Virus record (IMG/VR): IMGVR_UViG_2911215477_000001
Location: 1 to 38,485 of that record
Source: a virus
Taxonomy: Duplodnaviria; Heunggongvirae; Uroviricota; Caudoviricetes
Direction: 5' to 3' (one strand)
Length of the DNA: 38,485 nucleotides
Positions 1 through 38,485 of the stretch are shown here, one piece after another (position 1 is the stretch's first letter; each line of letters opens with the position of its first letter). A program made the position numbers and the translations under genes. The notes beneath the pieces were generated by a model. It searched no databases. It saw only the letters and a program-made list of their open reading frames with translations, and had not been told where the DNA came from.

Positions 1-1323
1 ATGCCAAAGATGCGCCTGACTAAGCAGGCGGTCGATGAGTTGCCGTTCCCTGAAGTATCCGGAACCCGCATCAACTACATCGACAGCGAATGCTCAGCCC
101 TCTACCTGCGTGTTACGACGACCGCAAAGACCTTCTATTACGTCACCTATAACGCTGCTGCGAAGAAGCGTGAATGGGTGAAGATCGGGCGACCGGATGA
201 GGGTCACACCCCAAACACCGCCCGTGAGTTCTGCCGGAAGGTAGCCCGTGGAGAGATCAATCTCGCGGAGCCGGCAGTCAACGAAGACGAACCCACTACC
301 CTTTCCCTTGTCCCGGAAACCGACTCGGGAGCCGCACCTGCGCCGGAAGAGATGACCTGCCGACAGCTGGCGAAAGACTATCTGGAGCAGTACGCCGTCA
401 ATAAGAAAGACGGTGGAAAGTCGGATCGTCGCTTTCTGGAGATCGACTTCCTACCCTCCTTTGGGGATCGGGTCGCGGCTTCTGTGAAGCGTTCGGAGCT
501 TCAGAAGCTCTTTCAGGACAAGGCGAACGGTGATCCTGACCTGGGGAAGAAAGCCGCCCCGGTCGCAGCGAACCGTCTTCGTGCCGTCGTTTCCAAGATG
601 TTCTCCTGGGGTATGCCGACCCTCGATGACGGTGTTCAGGTCAGTCCGGTCATGGGAACCCATCGTCGGAAAGAGCAAGCTCGCGACCGCGTTCTCTCCC
701 ATGATGAGCTTCGCCTCGTGTGGAGAAAGCTGTCTAGCTTTCAGTCGGACTTGATTCGCAGTGCGGTGAAGATACTGATCATCACCCTTCAGCGTCGTTC
801 CGAGGTAGCTCTCATGGAATGGAAAGAGATCGACTGGAAGCACCGCATCTGGACTATCCCGAAGGAAAAGTCGAAGAACGGACACTCGCAAACCGTCCCT
901 CTGTCGAAGATGGCAATCCGTGAGCTGGAATACATGAAGCCCCTAACCGGGCACACGCCATACATCTTCTGGAGCAACAAGAGGAACAACGCGAAGGTGC
1001 TGGAAGCAGGAGTTATTCACCCGGACTGGATCACTCACGCAATCGCGGACTTGCGCGCCCGCGACGAGGAACTGAAGGTCTTGGACCGTTTCACTCCCCA
1101 CGATTTCCGTCGTACTGCCGCTACCAATATCGGTGAGCTGATGGAGAGTCGTGAAGCGGTGAAGCGTCTGTTGAACCACGTCGAAGGTGGTGCGACGTCG
1201 ATTTATGACCGTGCGACGTACACGGGGTTGAAGCGCAAAGCCCTCAACCTTTGGGCAGATCGCCTGTCTAAGATCATCCGAGGCGAGCACATTCCCATCG
1301 CGGATCTGGACGAAGCCGCATAA
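1..1323 (+). CDS. int: Tyrosine recombinase / phage integrase with N-terminal arm-binding domain
   Basis: 440 aa. Catalytic set present: R (LQRRSEV), K (KSKNG), HxxR (HDFRRT), H (LNHV), Y (IYDR). The N-terminus RLTKQAV..YIDSECSALYLRVT resembles P4-type arm-binding domains. Confidence 0.93.
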   Translation: MPKMRLTKQAVDELPFPEVSGTRINYIDSECSALYLRVTTTAKTFYYVTYNAAAKKREWVKIGRPDEGHTPNTAREFCRKVARGEINLAEPAVNEDEPTTLSLVPETDSGAAPAPEEMTCRQLAKDYLEQYAVNKKDGGKSDRRFLEIDFLPSFGDRVAASVKRSELQKLFQDKANGDPDLGKKAAPVAANRLRAVVSKMFSWGMPTLDDGVQVSPVMGTHRRKEQARDRVLSHDELRLVWRKLSSFQSDLIRSAVKILIITLQRRSEVALMEWKEIDWKHRIWTIPKEKSKNGHSQTVPLSKMAIRELEYMKPLTGHTPYIFWSNKRNNAKVLEAGVIHPDWITHAIADLRARDEELKVLDRFTPHDFRRTAATNIGELMESREAVKRLLNHVEGGATSIYDRATYTGLKRKALNLWADRLSKIIRGEHIPIADLDEAA

Positions 1324-2739: not shown

Positions 2740-3283
2740 TTCCAAGTTCCTCAAGTGCCTGGTTGATCGCTCCCTGGATGATGTTCTGGGAGGCAAGGTC
2801 GGTGTCGATGTGACCGTTACGCTTCACGGGCGCGGTCACGGGTTCAGCACGCTCGCGCTTGACCTTGATCGGGTCGGCGTCTGCGATGGTGTTGGTGTCG
2901 GTCGGGACGAAGCCGCGCTGGGAGTTACCCCGGCGATAGCCGATGCCAGCTCGGGCGGCTTCGGACTGTTTCTGGAACTCGGCCAGGGTCTTGTGACGGT
3001 CGCGGAAGTACAGGGCGTGACCCACCTGCATCTCTTCCTTGCGCATCTTGATCGCCGGACAGGTTCGGCTGCAGATGGCGTCCTGGCAGCTCGTGCGCAG
3101 GTTCGGGCGCTTCTCCAGCACCGCTTCGATGGTGTGCAGGCAGACTGCATAGTTCGAACGGCCACTGTACTGGTCACACCAGAAGTAATAGCCGTTGCTG
3201 CCCGAGCGAGATTCGCCCATCGGCAGCTTGTCTTCATTGATGGGGTCGTTCGGGATGTCCCGAAGCTCGATCTTCTCTTCCAC
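2717..3283 (-). CDS. Cys-rich hypothetical protein (possible Zn-binding), 188 aa
   Basis: GTG start with AGGAG SD. Five Cys in the N-terminal half (FWC..AVC..SCQDAICSRTC). Overlaps the ligase start by 23 nt. Confidence 0.75.
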   Translation of the reverse strand: MEEKIELRDIPNDPINEDKLPMGESRSGSNGYYFWCDQYSGRSNYAVCLHTIEAVLEKRPNLRTSCQDAICSRTCPAIKMRKEEMQVGHALYFRDRHKTLAEFQKQSEAARAGIGYRRGNSQRGFVPTDTNTIADADPIKVKRERAEPVTAPVKRNGHIDTDLASQNIIQGAINQALEELGNEHDAQY

Positions 3284-3320
3284 GCTCTTCTCTCCTGTGC
3301 GCGCATTTGCGCTTCACGCA

Positions 3321-5824: not shown

Positions 5825-6136
5825 TTAAGCCACCTCGGCAACGGTGATCTCTTCGAGGGCGTGCTTGAACAGCAGGCGCTTGACGGCACCGTTGTTGGTG
5901 GAGATCAGGATGGTGTAGCGATCAACCTCCAGGACGTAGCCGTTCAGGACGACATCAGCGCCCAGCACGAATTCCAGCTCGGTCTCGGACTCGCGCATCT
6001 CCTGCAGCCACTGGTCATGGCTCCAGGGCTTCGGCTGGGGCGGGAGGACGATCTTGGTCGGCGGGGTTACTTCGGGACGGCGGGCCTTGCCGTTCAGGTG
6101 GAGGGTCTTGCGACGGGGAAAGTTGTGATCCTTCAT
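5825..6136 (-). CDS. hfq: Hfq-like (Sm-fold) RNA chaperone with basic, Pro-rich N-terminal extension, 103 aa
   Basis: SHDQWLQEMR..EFVL..VVLNGYVLEVDRYTILI..LLFKHALEEI aligns by eye with the Hfq core (LQDPFLNALR..IYL..IKLQGQIESFDQFVILL..VYKHAISTV). ATG at 6136. Confidence 0.8.
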   Translation of the reverse strand: MKDHNFPRRKTLHLNGKARRPEVTPPTKIVLPPQPKPWSHDQWLQEMRESETELEFVLGADVVLNGYVLEVDRYTILISTNNGAVKRLLFKHALEEITVAEVA

Positions 6137-6153
6137 TCTCTTCTCTACTGCGT

Positions 6154-15100: not shown

Positions 15101-17472
15101 GCCAGCTTTGCCACATAGGGCTGCGGGCAGCCAGCCGGGACGTCCGGATCGGTCGAAGCGACGACCGTGAAGCCCATGCGGTCGTAGCGGGTTTCGAACG
15201 TCGGGTTCGGGATCAGGTCTTCACCCGCGTTCAAGGCCGACTTGACCGCGTAGGTCAGCGTATCCAGGTTCGTCTGGAGGCTGCTGATGTCACCGATGCC
15301 CAGCGTGACCGCACCAGTGCGACCGGCAACGCTCGTCACCGTCTGCTGGTTGTCGATGCGATCCCAGCCATTCTTGTCATTGGCAACGATCATGTCGCCA
15401 ATCTTGTAGCTCACCGAGCTGACGGTGCCCGCCACGCTGATGATGTAGAAGTCACCCTTCTTCGGGGTGGCCGGCAGCGTGCCCTTGGAAGCGTCCCACG
15501 AGCCCATGTAGACCAGGGTGCCCGTCGATGCAGCCTGCATCGTTTCCGCCCAGTGGCGAGCGGAGAACTTGCCCGGCTGGACTTCGGTGTTGCGGGGAGC
15601 GTCAGCCCACTGCTGAGCCAGGTCGCGAGCGGTCTCGGCAGCCGTCTTCGCACCGCCTGCAGCCGACGAGGATGCGGCAGCGCTCGTTTCCGAGGACTTC
15701 GCGTTGGTCTCGCTCGTTTTGGCGTTGGTCTCGGAGGTCTTTGCGTTCGTAGCCGAGGTGGCTGCAGCCGTAGCCGATCCAGCAGCTGCCGTCTTCGATG
15801 CAGCAGCATTGGTTTCGGACGTAGCAGCGTTCGTTTCCGAGGTCTTGGAGTTGGTCTCGGAGGTCTTCGCCTTGCTCTGGGAGTCGGCAGCAGCAGCTGC
15901 GCTGTCAGAGGCAGCCTGGCTGTCCGTGATGTCCTCGATGTAGAGCGCCTGCAGCTCGATGGTCGCGCCCGTGCCAGCCGTCGCAATGGCCTGACAGGTG
16001 GCATAGGGAGCCGTGCTGCCGCTGGTGAACTGGAACGAGACCGTCTGCCACGCGCCGTCCTTGGGGAGGTTCGCGTTCGCAGGGATGTTGGCCATGACGG
16101 AGGTCGCCATAGCGTCGTTCACGGTCAGGATCGACAGACCCAGGGTCGAAGTGCCCGCAATGGATCGAGCGACCGCAGTTGCACGATAGGTGCGACCGGA
16201 CGCATTGCGCAGGTAGCCCTTCGGACGCGGATACACCGGGCTGGTTGCCGTGGACTTGAAGACCGTGCCAGAGCCCGCTTCAACGACGAAGTTGGCATCC
16301 GGGATGTCAGTCGATCCCGGACCCACCGAGTTGGTCAGGGTGAAGAACTTACCCTTCTGCGAGAACTCGCGGGGCATGGCGAACATTGCACCGGCAGTCG
16401 CAGCGGTCGCACTGTTGGCAGCGTTCGTTTCACTGGTCGCAGCAGCGGTCTTCGACGCAGCAGCAGCGTTTTCCGATGCCTTGGCATTGGTTTCGCTGGT
16501 CTTTGCATTCGTCTCGGAGGTTGCAGCAGCCGTTTTGCTGGCAGCAGCAGCATTCTCGGAAGCCTTCGCGTTGGTTTCCGAGGTGCCGGCAGCGGTCTTG
16601 CTCGCAGCAGCAGCCGTCGCGGAGCCAGCAGCGTTCGTTTCGCTGGTTTTCGCGTTCGTTTCGGAGGTCTTGGCGTTGGTTTCCGACGTCTTTGCGTTCG
16701 TTTCGGAGGTCTTCGCCTTCCCTTCCGACGTGGAAGCATTGGTGGCCGACGTAGCAGCAGCCGTAGCGGAGCCGGCAGCAGCGGTCTTGCTGGAAGCAGC
16801 GTTCGTTTCGCTCGTGGCCGCAGCCGTCTTGCTCGCAGCAGCGTTGGTTTCCGAGGTCTTGGAGTTGGACTCGGAGATCTTTGCGTTCTGCTCGCTCGTG
16901 CGGGCAGCTGCAGCCGAAGCCGCCGCATTGGTCTCGCTGGTCTTGGCAGCGTCACGCGATGCGTTCGACTTGGCCAGGTTGTCGCGAGTCTGGGCAATCG
17001 CACCGCCCAGCTCATCAGCCATCTTGGTGCCGCTGTCCAGGATCTGTGGCAGCGAGTAGACCTCCATCGCCACGCCGTCGAAGCTGGTGATCGTGACCTT
17101 GGTCGGATACACCGGGTCATCGGATGCCGGCTTCGTCGCCCAATCGGTCAGCTGACGCTCGCGCAGGAGCGACTTGCTGATGAGCTGGAGCTGGGCAGCA
17201 ACAAGCTCGGCACCGGGAAGCACCGAGAAGTTGCGGATGACCGCGTAGGTCGTGGTAGCCAGGCTCGCGCCCTTGTAAGGGGACGCGAGCACCAGGGTAT
17301 CGGCACCAGTGACGTCCGCGATCTCGTAGAACGCAGCGCCGTCGATGGTGAAGAGATCACCAGGGCGGATCGGGTTGCCAACATTCCAGAACGTCGAGGT
17401 TCCGGAGATGTTGGCCGAGTCCTTGGTTACTTTGACAGTGCCGGCTCGATACCAGCGGCTGTAGTCCGTCAT
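12100..17472 (-). CDS. Side tail fibre, 1790 aa, with CBM-like domains and a C-terminal intramolecular chaperone (peptidase S74-like)
   Basis: N-terminal anchor (WYRAGTVKV..ISGTSTFW), SETNA repeats, two NL(I/V)xxxxFE jelly-roll starts, a PSAHTH motif, and C-terminal SDARLK..GFFAQE. Confidence 0.92.
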   Translation of the reverse strand: MTDYSRWYRAGTVKVTKDSANISGTSTFWNVGNPIRPGDLFTIDGAAFYEIADVTGADTLVLASPYKGASLATTTYAVIRNFSVLPGAELVAAQLQLISKSLLRERQLTDWATKPASDDPVYPTKVTITSFDGVAMEVYSLPQILDSGTKMADELGGAIAQTRDNLAKSNASRDAAKTSETNAAASAAAARTSEQNAKISESNSKTSETNAAASKTAAATSETNAASSKTAAAGSATAAATSATNASTSEGKAKTSETNAKTSETNAKTSETNAKTSETNAAGSATAAAASKTAAGTSETNAKASENAAAASKTAAATSETNAKTSETNAKASENAAAASKTAAATSETNAANSATAATAGAMFAMPREFSQKGKFFTLTNSVGPGSTDIPDANFVVEAGSGTVFKSTATSPVYPRPKGYLRNASGRTYRATAVARSIAGTSTLGLSILTVNDAMATSVMANIPANANLPKDGAWQTVSFQFTSGSTAPYATCQAIATAGTGATIELQALYIEDITDSQAASDSAAAAADSQSKAKTSETNSKTSETNAATSETNAAASKTAAAGSATAAATSATNAKTSETNAKTSETNAKSSETSAAASSSAAGGAKTAAETARDLAQQWADAPRNTEVQPGKFSARHWAETMQAASTGTLVYMGSWDASKGTLPATPKKGDFYIISVAGTVSSVSYKIGDMIVANDKNGWDRIDNQQTVTSVAGRTGAVTLGIGDISSLQTNLDTLTYAVKSALNAGEDLIPNPTFETRYDRMGFTVVASTDPDVPAGCPQPYVAKLAVRDHTPNFDPIPVQPGDVIEMTAVVASSVGTPGTNAFNLYVRQSQFSPWAPGGAGTYTYTNVKSQPISAGWVKVVGRYTVPANGSVRWILPFLQINQNSPDYGSIWYATDWHVRNLTSVAALESSKLDSAAFTWANLANKPTTFTPSAHTHAISEVTNLQRSLDLINFTAGRNLVSDGNFEKKLWDLTQSGAQGRVTYVTDSRSGSTAIQIAPGSGDVSFGMPVQTIPVVLGRTYRISCYYKTSADYNGASNNSKLRLGDSGGGLLIAPTFSSNKTSWTQVTGDYTVQPGVTGLQLSVNANQTVGTLTVDDVSIIDVTDDLGLLPLLATKLGKTGNQTYDGVTNTAAAWAALPMGYSSYMGNSSTIGIAGGAPNDNYGYFHKIANRDVSGGWAGLWIQAGSSDSFVGGTSDGSQFATWNKLWTSANFDPTTKLDKTATAASATSIAVVDTRDVVDAPGDFGAKQVFASFKRIASVNNPPVNNGGTYAHILTMMGWDIGGSGGYASQLSFGDGLAIRKGTNATTWGPWRNVWHDGNFNPNSKANLVGPTFSDIVYFKPVNGTTGLSRFMPFGTDGVSLDAVNSDASKYAPIAINGTDISLQAQNKITVTKSVVSTHVWSGPGQGVGAMAYQAGGSYGGGYAISDGDNDIALYSVGGALNISFGAKRGALISRVTVAPDGTTTVNGTVIANNASLRASGWNGTATDGVVYFGNANSYIFKQGGQFSFYNEQAGFTASLAAGGTIWTSALITPLDKNVGGVMMKEITFNGNGGGNGIYPGNGDNCSITANNLAIKSWNGIGFAPTISGQAVPLGEYSHWFDVRNGHFNMRGDLVARGSATIWGEASGNTLKARNGYVNSDQGHLVLGNNGTAGTIYMRPNGPYNGAGEFKVQSNGDAYCSAWVYAPNFKINSDARLKRFAEKLNPRQELEKIKKLIPRSYLKDGHWEFGFFAQEMEDHYPTMVTSGDGPAGPDTLTLSVAELLAPLVAAVQMLDKRLTDGGL
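15630..15925 (-). repeat. Coding tandem repeat block 2 (same units as block 1)
   Basis: Second run of KTSETN/AAAS units after an intervening globular domain of about 150 aa. Boundaries are approximate. Confidence 0.8.
16390..16965 (-). repeat. Coding tandem repeat block 1 (AKTSETN / AAASKTA units)
   Basis: Many imperfect 7-aa and 14-aa units in the fibre translation (Stf-like coiled coil). Boundaries are approximate. Confidence 0.85.
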
Positions 17473-36382: not shown

Positions 36383-37633
36383 TCAAAAGCTAACACCCAG
36401 GACCGGCGTCTTGCGGGTCGGGAAGTTGTACTCGATGGCGTAGCCGATACCGTCCGCGATGTGCTCCTTGTTGAGCGACTTGTCGATCTCGGTCGTGCCC
36501 TCGCGATACGTCACCTGTTCGAAGGCTTCGATGGTCGCCCTGCACTTCTCGTTGACCTTCAGTCGCACCTGGTTGCTGGCACTGCGGAGCAAGGCGTTCA
36601 CCGAGTTCACGCGGTCCTGCACGAACGGATGCTTCTTGTGATACATGATCCGCTTGAAGCCTCGGCTGCGGAAAATGTCCAGGGCCGATTCACCACGGGC
36701 ATGCGAGCGCGAACCACCTGCCGGGTCAGGGAAGATGGTGATCTGGCTCATGTTGCGCCAGTAGCGCTTCTCCAGCTCGTCGCAGACCTCGGTCACGTTG
36801 GAGTTGAAGAGCACGATCTCATCGACCACCCACAGCTCGCCGTTCGGCTGAGGCTGAAGCACAGCAGCCGACATCGGGGAGATGTTGAAGTCCTGCCCGA
36901 TCCAGATCGGCAGCTTCGGGTTGAATGGGTAGTTGCCCACATGCCGGCTGCGTTCGAACGGGTAGTAGACGCGGCCCGACATGGTTTCGAAGCTCGCCTC
37001 GTACTCCTGACGGAACGTGCGCGGATCCAGGTCGCTGCGTGCCTGCTCGATCTCTCGCATGGGCACGAACGGGGACGCGATGGTCGGGAACTGCCAGCTC
37101 GCCCACTCGGGGTTCTTGCGGTTGCGCTGACGGACGCCCTTGGCGTAGTTCTCGTACAGAAGGTTGTGGGACTTGGGCGTGCCGATGAAGAGCGCCCTGC
37201 CCTCCGTCGTCGCCAGGGTCGGACGGAGCACCTGCTCCCAGACCTCGGTGCGCATATCCTGGTATTCGTCGAGCACCACGAAGTTCAGACCCACACCGCG
37301 CAGGGTGTCAGGTCGGTCGGCACCCTTCAGGGAGATCAGCGCGCCGTTGACCAGGCGCAACTGCAGGAGCGTTTCGTTGTACTTGTCCACCCAATCCGGA
37401 GGCGTGGTCGCCTTCAGATCGTTCCACATGATCTCTCGGGCCATGCCGTAGGTCGGGGCCACATACCAGATCTTGTCGCCGGGATTGGCACGCGCACCTT
37501 CGCGACGAAGCTCGGACAGTGCGAGCGTCGTCTTGCCAAAGCGTCGGCCTGCAACCAGGGTGCGGAAACGCGCAGGATTGCGATACACCTCCATCTGGGC
37601 ACGATGGAGGCGCGTGCGTGCTACCTCGCTCAT
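36383..37633 (-). CDS. terL: Terminase large subunit
   Basis: Walker A AGRRFGKT, Walker B FVVLDEYQD, nuclease GQDFN and HIADGIGY. Confidence 0.95.
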   Translation of the reverse strand: MSEVARTRLHRAQMEVYRNPARFRTLVAGRRFGKTTLALSELRREGARANPGDKIWYVAPTYGMAREIMWNDLKATTPPDWVDKYNETLLQLRLVNGALISLKGADRPDTLRGVGLNFVVLDEYQDMRTEVWEQVLRPTLATTEGRALFIGTPKSHNLLYENYAKGVRQRNRKNPEWASWQFPTIASPFVPMREIEQARSDLDPRTFRQEYEASFETMSGRVYYPFERSRHVGNYPFNPKLPIWIGQDFNISPMSAAVLQPQPNGELWVVDEIVLFNSNVTEVCDELEKRYWRNMSQITIFPDPAGGSRSHARGESALDIFRSRGFKRIMYHKKHPFVQDRVNSVNALLRSASNQVRLKVNEKCRATIEAFEQVTYREGTTEIDKSLNKEHIADGIGYAIEYNFPTRKTPVLGVSF

Positions 37634-38277
37634 TCTGCTTCCTCTTCCTCGGACTCCGTGTCCGGTTCCGGGAAGGACTCAGCTGCGGCTTCGATCTCTT
37701 CGATGGTGGGCGCGGGTGCCTCTTCGTCGGTTTCCTCACCGAACGAGGACGTGCGGTTGCGGAGCGCTGCCTCTTCCTCGGCAGTCATCTCTTCCACGAC
37801 GATCTTGGTCTTCTCGCCCGTGCCGGCGTCCGGGTTGATCTCCAACAGGCAATACAGCTCTTCGCGGGCGAGCTTCAGTGAAGCGACCGATTCGCGCAGG
37901 GCTTTGGCAGTTGCCTGGAGGGACGCAAGCGAATGGCCACCCTCACGGATGACCTTGAACTCGCGACCGAAGGCTTGCAGGAGGTTGAGCTGGATGCCGG
38001 CGAGCTGTTCCTTCGCGTAGATCGAACGGAATGCCATCTTCTCGGCGTATTCGCGCTCCATCGCAGCGATCTTCGCCAGGTTCTCTTCACGAACCTTGTC
38101 CAGCTTCTCGCCGCCCTTGATCTTGGCAGCGGTCATGTGTCGGGAGACGGTTTCGATGCGGATGCCGAACTTTTCAGCCACCTCTTTCTGGGTGTGGCCG
38201 TTGGCATACATCTCTTCGGCCTTCGCCCACTCCTTCGGAGTCAGACGGCGACCGGCGCTTGCAGCTTTTGCACTCAT
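37630..38277 (-). CDS. terS: Terminase small subunit
   Basis: N-terminal HTH (TQKEVAEKFGIRIETVSRH), coiled-coil middle and acidic tail. Overlaps the terL ATG. Confidence 0.85.
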   Translation of the reverse strand: MSAKAASAGRRLTPKEWAKAEEMYANGHTQKEVAEKFGIRIETVSRHMTAAKIKGGEKLDKVREENLAKIAAMEREYAEKMAFRSIYAKEQLAGIQLNLLQAFGREFKVIREGGHSLASLQATAKALRESVASLKLAREELYCLLEINPDAGTGEKTKIVVEEMTAEEEAALRNRTSSFGEETDEEAPAPTIEEIEAAAESFPEPDTESEEEEAE

Positions 38278-38282
38278 TACAA

Positions 38283-38351
38283 CTCCATCCTTGGAGATAT
38301 GAAGACGGGATCTACAGCGCGTCCCATCCTTGGGGGCTGTAGATCCCGTCT
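38283..38351 (-). promoter_or_regulatory. Structured terS leader: two CAAGGATG-loop hairpins, one capping a perfect 16-bp stem
   Basis: AGACGGGATCTACAGC (38303-38318) / GCTGTAGATCCCGTCT (38336-38351) with inner CCCA-AGGA-TGGG. CTCCA-AGGA-TGGAG (38283-38296) covers the SD. Confidence 0.75.
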
Positions 38352-38353
38352 GT

Positions 38354-38437
38354 TAGAAAATCCCGGCTCGGTCCATCGGAGGAGAGAAGAGATGGTCTTT
38401 GGCGACCGCTGCCGGGGTGTCCTTTGTATGTATGTGC
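38354..38437 (-). ncRNA. Candidate leader-derived small RNA of about 85 nt (hairpin plus U-tract, pyrimidine-rich loop)
   Basis: Starts just after TATAAT (38449-38444). Nested stems CCCGGC/GCCGGG, CGGT/ACCG and CCATC/GATGG, loop TCTTCTCTCCTCC, then ATTTTCT. Structure predicted by hand only. Confidence 0.45.
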
Positions 38438-38449
38438 TTACCTATTATA
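38426..38449 (-). promoter_or_regulatory. Operator-like palindrome 11 overlapping TATAAT (head-operon promoter)
   Basis: GTAT-GTATGT-gctt-ACCTAT at 38426-38445. Minus-strand TATAAT at 38449-38444, with GTGAAA 17 bp upstream. Confidence 0.8.
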
Positions 38450-38485
38450 CCGGGCACAACACTAAATTTCACACCTAGCTTCAAC

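Follow-up and report, generated by a model that had tools for sequence, protein, structure and literature searches.

A pyrimidine-rich loop in the late-operon leader of an SSU5/nickie-like prophage is complementary to a class of early ribosome-binding sites and may represent an anti-RBS element

Background

Several bacterial small RNAs act on translation through an unpaired, C/U-rich loop that is directed against the purine-rich Shine-Dalgarno (SD) regions of several mRNAs, e.g., RNAIII and RsaE/RoxS of S. aureus, LhrC of Listeria and RepG of H. pylori. They are stand-alone genes that have their own terminators and usually carry several copies of the motif. The leader described here has the same type of loop, but it is present in one copy in an mRNA leader with no clear 3' end, and the candidate targets are the phage's own genes. 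A second point of comparison is phage T4, where an initiation signature of the early class permits post-transcriptional shut-off by the RegB endoribonuclease and the RegA repressor while late genes are spared. Whereas T4 relies on proteins for this purpose, an RNA is proposed as the effector in the present case, possibly aided by an Hfq-like protein. Phage-encoded sRNAs as such are well known.

The closest described arrangement is the C4 antisense RNA of phages P1 and P7 (immI; Citron and Schuster 1990, cited in PMC8198154), which in the account given by the citing paper is leader-borne and has loops that mask the ribosome-binding region. The similarity to C4 lies in an antisense element in a phage-operon leader with exposed loops facing a ribosome-binding region, although the pairing is a predicted one in the present case. 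In addition, both are found in large temperate phages with many promoters under one repressor operator. There are also clear differences. C4 targets its own downstream transcript (icd-ant) and serves immunity, whereas the leader analyzed here belongs to a virion operon and has at least 14 other transcripts as candidate targets. The C4 target lies over the ribosome-binding site (RBS) of the next gene in the same transcript; here the next gene is terS, and its RBS is of a different, GGA-loop type. No sequence or structure similarity to C4 (RF01695) is present, and an Rfam search does not recover it even with the E limit raised to 10. A genuine regulator would be a variant of the known leader antisense and anti-SD logic that falls outside the C4 family.

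The prophage and its late promoter

The window, i.e., the whole stretch of DNA that was analyzed, is 38,485 nt long (G000:C1:64774-103258) and represents the left third of a ~103-kb SSU5/nickie-like prophage, as determined by its placement in the genome. The integrase gene int (window 1-1323, plus strand) marks the left prophage end, and nearly all other prophage genes are on the minus strand. The far end is at a tRNA cluster near genome 167.7 kb. By large terminase and gene layout, the kin of this prophage are siphophages of ~105-120 kb: Stenotrophomonas phages ANB28 and BUCTxx99, Xanthomonas phage JGB6, Pseudomonas phage nickie and Salmonella phage SSU5. The sole close relative is the Logan contig SRR11658448_3841, which was examined end to end; its TerS is 97% identical, and the nt identity is 96% in the virion module and 79-92% elsewhere. 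A promoter-plus-operator motif, consisting of a TATAAT-like box followed by GTATGT..ACATAC, is present in ~35 copies across genome positions 64.5-167 kb and is almost absent from the rest of the genome.

The late promoter, which serves the terminase/head operon, is at positions 38444..38472 on the minus strand and has a -35 box GTGAAA, a 17-nt spacer and a -10 box TATAAT (38449-38444), as an earlier note on this DNA had described from the sequence. It scores 10 of 12 matches in a promoter scan. An operator copy with the half-site ACATACATAC is situated directly 3' of the -10 box (38426..38443, minus strand), and this operator region shares a 29-nt match with another phage promoter at genome position 157179.

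The operon leader is 160 nt in length and has two hairpins, both formed by the minus strand. Hairpin 1 (38362..38416) is closed by an outer GC stem that pairs positions 38416-38411 with 38367-38362. The 44-nt interior contains alternative inner stems and a pyrimidine tract. This 18-nt pyrimidine-rich tract, CCAUCUCUUCUCUCCUCC (38378..38395, minus strand), is the candidate anti-RBS seed and includes the segment CCAUCUCUUCUCUCCU at 38395-38380 to which attention had first been drawn. Hairpin 2 (38304..38350) displays a perfect 15-bp stem with the apical element CCCAAGGAUGGG. Between the two hairpins is the linker AUUUUCU (38361-38355, i.e., 38355..38361 on the minus strand), which had been proposed as a 3' end or processing site. 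The terS RBS is in a small GGA-loop hairpin (CUCCAAGGAUGGAG, 38283..38296, minus strand), and the terS ORF (37630-38277, minus strand) begins with an ATG at 38277.

AAGGA or CAAGGAUGG recurs in small hairpin loops, both in virion-gene start regions and in hairpin 2 (window positions 38334-38323, 38296-38283, 36351-36338, about 33785-33769 and about 17480-17465). These loops form a second, late-class type of RBS, and they resemble CsrA/RsmA binding sites.

Complementarity of the leader loop to early ribosome-binding sites

The motif GAGAGAAGAG has nine sense copies in the 103-kb phage, each located next to a start codon. The rest of the genome, 9.8 Mb of host sequence, has four copies with both strands counted, which corresponds to a >200-fold enrichment in the phage. 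Antisense copies in the phage number two, compared with 0.04 expected per phage strand (P about 9e-4), and the leader loop is one of these two. The other is a 21-nt polypyrimidine tract in the att region (genome 167390-167410, minus strand; ~102617 on the window scale). It is flanked by the promoter of a xis-like gene and by about eight GGCTACAG-type repeats, which are probably integrase arm sites; no transcript of this tract is evident.

The start regions that carry the motif, termed GA-type here, have the consensus GGAGAGAAGAG adjoining the start codon. The seed has 9-14 contiguous Watson-Crick matches with 16 of the 17 GA-type start regions and 7 with the other one, and the pairing covers the SD and the start codon in all targets. 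Carriers of a GA-type RBS are the genes for an 80-aa excisionase-like HTH protein, the integrase, CobT-like, CobS/MoxR-like, SbcD-like and SbcC-like proteins, a dUTPase, a DUF6197 protein, a 188-aa protein and an Hfq-like protein, as well as several small ORFs. The targets include at least 14 early, recombination and DNA-metabolism genes, and 11-12 of the 17 GA-type genes are directly behind an operator promoter.

A permutation test on start regions that were chosen by seed k-mer match is circular, and two independently defined sets were used instead: 26 start regions selected solely by a purine run of at least 9, and all 131 phage start regions. With the first set the real 18-nt loop has a mean delta G of -16.4 kcal/mol, compared with -11.4 +/- 1.45 kcal/mol for 2000 shuffles of the same composition, none of which equals the real loop. 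With the second set, 13 regions are at -18 kcal/mol or lower; the shuffles have 2.0 such regions on average and 9 at most. The complementarity of the loop to the phage RBSs is sequence-specific and is more than a matter of low complexity, which had been raised as a caveat for GA-rich sequence.

The loop was also ranked against the start regions of 4108 whole-genome gene calls, a crude set of which phage genes make up 3%. Phage genes nevertheless represent 6 of the top 10, 10 of the top 30 and 14 of the top 50 duplexes (hypergeometric 2e-7 to 2e-10). The xis-like gene ranks first at -30.1 kcal/mol, with 14 contiguous Watson-Crick pairs inside a 17-bp helix, and the int start region ranks 32 of 4108. 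The 188-aa gene and the Hfq-like gene had been proposed as the target pair, with the only two GA-rich RBSs. Within the window these are indeed the only two, but at least 15 others are found when the entire phage is considered. The 188-aa gene ranks second genome-wide as a target; the targets as a whole, however, are a class of at least 14 that is led by the xis-like gene outside the window.

Virion genes tend toward AAGGA in small hairpin loops, and no credible start region of the virion module pairs with the loop at -20 kcal/mol or lower. The one virion-module region at -20.1 kcal/mol is at an internal start that was probably mis-chosen.

At the right prophage end (genome 166609-167258), the xis-like gene (80 aa, HTH_17) is convergent with a plus-strand gene that encodes 136 aa and belongs to no known family; both have GA-type RBSs behind operator promoters. 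With int at the left end, all three would fall into the same proposed regulon.

Ribosome binding offers a partial account of the motif. The tail of the host 16S rRNA, GGAUCACCUCCUUUC, pairs with the GA motif through GGAG only (-7.4 kcal/mol); at the xis-like site, where the SD is even weaker, the 16S pairing is -5.5 kcal/mol. Extended 16S pairing was considered as the source of the motif and rejected, since nothing pairs beyond GGAG, and the conserved AGAAGAG part therefore needs another explanation. An origin of the loop by inverted duplication of an early cassette was rejected as well: similarity to the xis, dut and sbcD regions ends at the 13-14-nt motif.

The reading that we put forward, tentatively and from sequence analysis, is that the late leader may be an anti-RBS element that acts as an RNA on the GA-type class.

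Folding of the leader and the question of a discrete small RNA

The earlier note had proposed that an RNA of about 85 nt with nested stems, a 13-nt pyrimidine loop and an AUUUUCU end is transcribed first from the late promoter. The minimum free energy of the 84-nt RNA is -23.0 kcal/mol. The nested-stem fold with the 13-nt loop has a delta G of -22.4 kcal/mol and is thus a near-optimal alternative. The tract is mostly unpaired in both folds, and the seed has a mean unpaired probability of 0.68 in the ensemble. The stability of the 84-nt RNA is not significant relative to shuffled sequences (z -1.8; 8 of 200 as good).

A terminator scan called no minus-strand terminator at AUUUUCU, which has only four U residues. 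Neither hairpin 1 nor hairpin 2 was called as a minus-strand intrinsic terminator, i.e., a compact GC-rich hairpin with a direct U-run. A canonical terminator is present elsewhere in the phage, after the capsid gene (32836-32806). No Rfam family is found in the window at the gathering score, and a search of 38200-38485 with E up to 10 gave only two unrelated weak matches. The leader has a promoter, but no 3' end is defined for a discrete small RNA, and a separate species of ~85 nt is unsupported by the fold and the terminator scan. As regards the features of Hfq-dependent sRNAs, the Rho-independent terminator with a 3' U-tail is absent, while an accessible seed complementary to start regions is present, with 7-14 contiguous matches in 17 regions. 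The hallmark of pyrimidine-loop anti-SD sRNAs, an unpaired C/U motif against the SD regions of several mRNAs, is found as well.

The whole leader is a very stable structure (z -5.4), to which hairpin 2 is the main contributor. This stability fits a purely cis-acting late leader, in which hairpins 1 and 2 would govern read-through, the processing or stability of the RNA, or the translation of terS. For example, the two GGA-loop sites could act together with host CsrA, the pyrimidine tract being a mere loop or an S1/Hfq site, and the match to the early RBSs would be without regulatory consequence. The two CAAGGAUGG elements, both situated in hairpin loops and one overlying the terS SD, are consistent with such a role. 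So are the presence of csrA in the host (a single copy at genome 870127-870282; none was found in the prophage), the good conservation of the leader in the relative and the insertion of the module before terS in this lineage. We consider a purely cis-acting leader somewhat unlikely. It leaves unexplained an exact antisense match to the early RBS motif that beats all 2000 shuffles. Moreover, the loop has no GA-type partner within the late operon, where the best start region is that of terL at -16.2 kcal/mol; the strong targets are in other operons.

The 188-aa gene and the Hfq-like gene

The start region of the 188-aa gene (3280..3296, minus strand) has a GA-type RBS followed by GUG. It pairs with the seed through 12 bp, a bulged C and another 4 bp, and the duplex has a delta G of -25.9 kcal/mol (rank 2 of 4108). 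The pairing block is unchanged in the close relative, where 4 of the 27 nt just upstream are altered. The start region of the Hfq-like gene (6134..6146, minus strand) pairs through 12 bp with one bulged A, but the delta G is only -16.7 kcal/mol (rank 196 of 4108). In the relative, this start has a 5-nt indel and substitutions, and 12 bp with one bulge can form in a shifted register (-15.5 kcal/mol). Both duplexes are exactly as the earlier note described them. The prediction that the targets rank above background holds for the GA class and for the 188-aa gene; the Hfq-like gene is unremarkable in this respect. As a weak target it lends no special support to the feedback loop on a phage-encoded Hfq that had been suggested.

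A GC palindrome, GCGCAAATGCGC, is located between the operator and the GA-type RBS of the 188-aa gene (window 3311-3300, minus strand). The relative (L025 about 15560-15575) has GCGCTAAAGCGC instead, where a double change from A..T to T..A leaves the dyad intact. Several other early leaders have comparable GCGC-rich dyads at the same place (genome 162940, 131000 and 116190).

The Hfq-like gene itself (5825..6136, minus strand; 103 aa) is real as a member of this family. The protein matches Pfam PF17209 over residues 41-101 (34.0 bits, cut-off 27; E 2.2e-8). A search of 1.84 billion cluster representatives gave just 11 hits with E up to 1e-3, which makes it a near-orphan; the best of the small hits are 31-40% identical. 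No record in the phage collection encodes this protein. The ortholog in the relative (L025:12738-13049), which also matches PF17209, has 7 differences in 103 residues.

The distal faces of Hfq proteins recognize A-R-N or A-G repeats, and early start regions are where RegB and RegA of T4 act. The GA-type RBS class could accordingly be read by a protein, either the Hfq-like protein on purine repeats or a RegA/RegB-like repressor or nuclease, with the loop being unrelated. The class-specific nature of the motif, which 16S pairing does not explain, and the co-occurrence of the motif with a lineage-specific Hfq-like gene are in line with this. We regard a protein reader as quite unlikely by itself, as it does not account for the antisense copy that the late leader carries. 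It is also compatible with the anti-RBS reading, where such a protein could chaperone the pairing.

Relatives and origin of the leader module

TerS homologs at 40-45% identity are found in three phage records, ANB28, BUCTxx99 and JGB6. Searches of 400 family genomes, the GTDB contigs and IMG/VR gave none, and two contigs with 31% TerS identity have a different layout. The leader DNA gave only chance matches of 22-27 nt in the 400 family genomes. In ANB28 and JGB6, terS has a short leader of ~45 nt without the pyrimidine loop. GAGAGAAGAG is absent from these two phages; each has one near-match, which is equal to the control.

Alignment with ANB28 and JGB6 shows that the ancestral -10 box, short leader and RBS-like stretch are retained in the present phage. 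They are followed by ~207 nt of lineage-specific sequence that comprises the operator promoter, both hairpins, a new RBS and nine extra TerS codons. The lineage-specific terS leader module corresponds to window positions 38278-38485, and the ancestral remnant is just past the window end (genome 103259-103330).

In the close relative, the leader differs at 1 of 195 positions compared with a window mean of 14.3; 4.5% of windows are as low, and several of these equally conserved windows are other promoter regions. The loop and the stems are identical. The relative carries the Hfq-like gene, the 188-aa gene and int, and the motifs of the DUF6197 gene and int are kept. The motif of the 240-aa gene has two purine-for-purine changes that shorten the contiguous pairing from 11 to 9 bp, with the loop unchanged. 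The comparison shows the GA motif and the leader to be, as far as sequence conservation indicates, under selection. With a loop that is invariant, this conservation does not amount to covariation. Both members of the lineage have the loop together with the GA-type RBS class and the Hfq-like gene, and ANB28 and JGB6 have none of the three. Their co-occurrence is a single evolutionary event.

The position of the module is also relevant to a DNA-level role. The polypurine/polypyrimidine tract, with the adjacent 15-bp inverted repeat, could be part of a pac site or another site for a phage protein. The SPP1 pac site spans a promoter and the 5' end of the small-terminase gene, and the tract here is immediately upstream of terS; the second antisense tract, in the att region, has no evident transcript. 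A DNA-level element is nevertheless very unlikely in our estimate: relatives with a homologous terS have no such module at all, and all sense copies are at RBS distance from start codons, which points to a motif at the RNA level.

Two small ORFs overlap the module. On the plus strand, GGAGGAGAGAAGAG followed by an ATG at 38392 could represent the GA-type RBS of a 28-codon antisense ORF (38392-38478). The site has a 14-nt match to the xis start region that includes ATGG, the frame is open and runs back across the late promoter and operator, and the one leader substitution that the relative has is silent here. The ORF has no plus-strand promoter or operator that could be found upstream, however, and its GC3 is about 61% (hand count) compared with 75-85% in phage genes. 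A start codon and an open frame of 28 codons after the motif are not unlikely by chance, and we consider a functional plus strand highly improbable. A 43-codon minus-strand ORF over hairpin 1, from a TTG at 38484 to a TAA at 38355-38353, was judged unlikely to be coding; its GC3 is about 53% (hand count), it crosses the promoter and the substitution in the relative is non-synonymous. The TTG at 38484 is at the ancestral start position, and its 43-codon frame stops exactly at the end of hairpin 1. Most of the probability left over after these readings goes to a chance match.

A possible switch from early to late expression

Under the anti-RBS reading, hairpin 1 would expose the 18-nt pyrimidine tract, which would pair with the GA-type initiation regions. 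The pairing would mask the SD and the start codon and hinder 30S binding. We infer that build-up of the late-operon RNA would lead to pairing in vivo and lower the translation of early genes, while virion genes, with their other type of RBS, would be spared. The active species may be a leader fragment that arises from weak termination or is processed out of the transcript, either at the AU-rich linker or at hairpin 2. Alternatively, it may be just the 5' end of the late mRNA. The AUUUUCU linker would provide a single-stranded, AU-rich context, and hairpin 2 may form a coaxial helix of ~20 bp that would be a possible processing site. The Hfq-like protein could be a chaperone for the pairing, or it could bind the purine repeats directly.

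Several points argue against such a switch, among them the fold and terminator results, the pairing lost in the 240-aa gene of the relative and the phage-type RBS with ATG that the plus strand of the loop resembles. The late promoter has the same operator as the early promoters, so that there is no obvious delay between regulator and targets, and RBS function would by itself lead to a conserved GA motif.

A more elaborate form of the proposal is an early-to-late switch in three parts that is specific to this lineage: the inserted leader, GA-type RBSs rewritten on at least 14 early operons, int and xis among them, and a private, highly divergent Hfq-like chaperone. The late leader RNA, loaded by the phage Hfq-like protein, would then silence the whole early class. 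We consider the three-part form unlikely as it stands.

To our knowledge, there is next to no work on temporal control in the large temperate phages of the SSU5/nickie group, and a search for literature on RNA control in the SSU5 group found nothing. With ~35 promoters that share one operator, post-transcriptional control is a natural place to seek the order of early and late expression. If the proposal is true, the leader would be an RNA counterpart of T4 RegA/RegB that masks an RBS motif on a dozen or more operons. It would then also represent a rare phage sRNA with a regulon made up of early genes of the phage itself, possibly in concert with an Hfq-like chaperone that the phage encodes.
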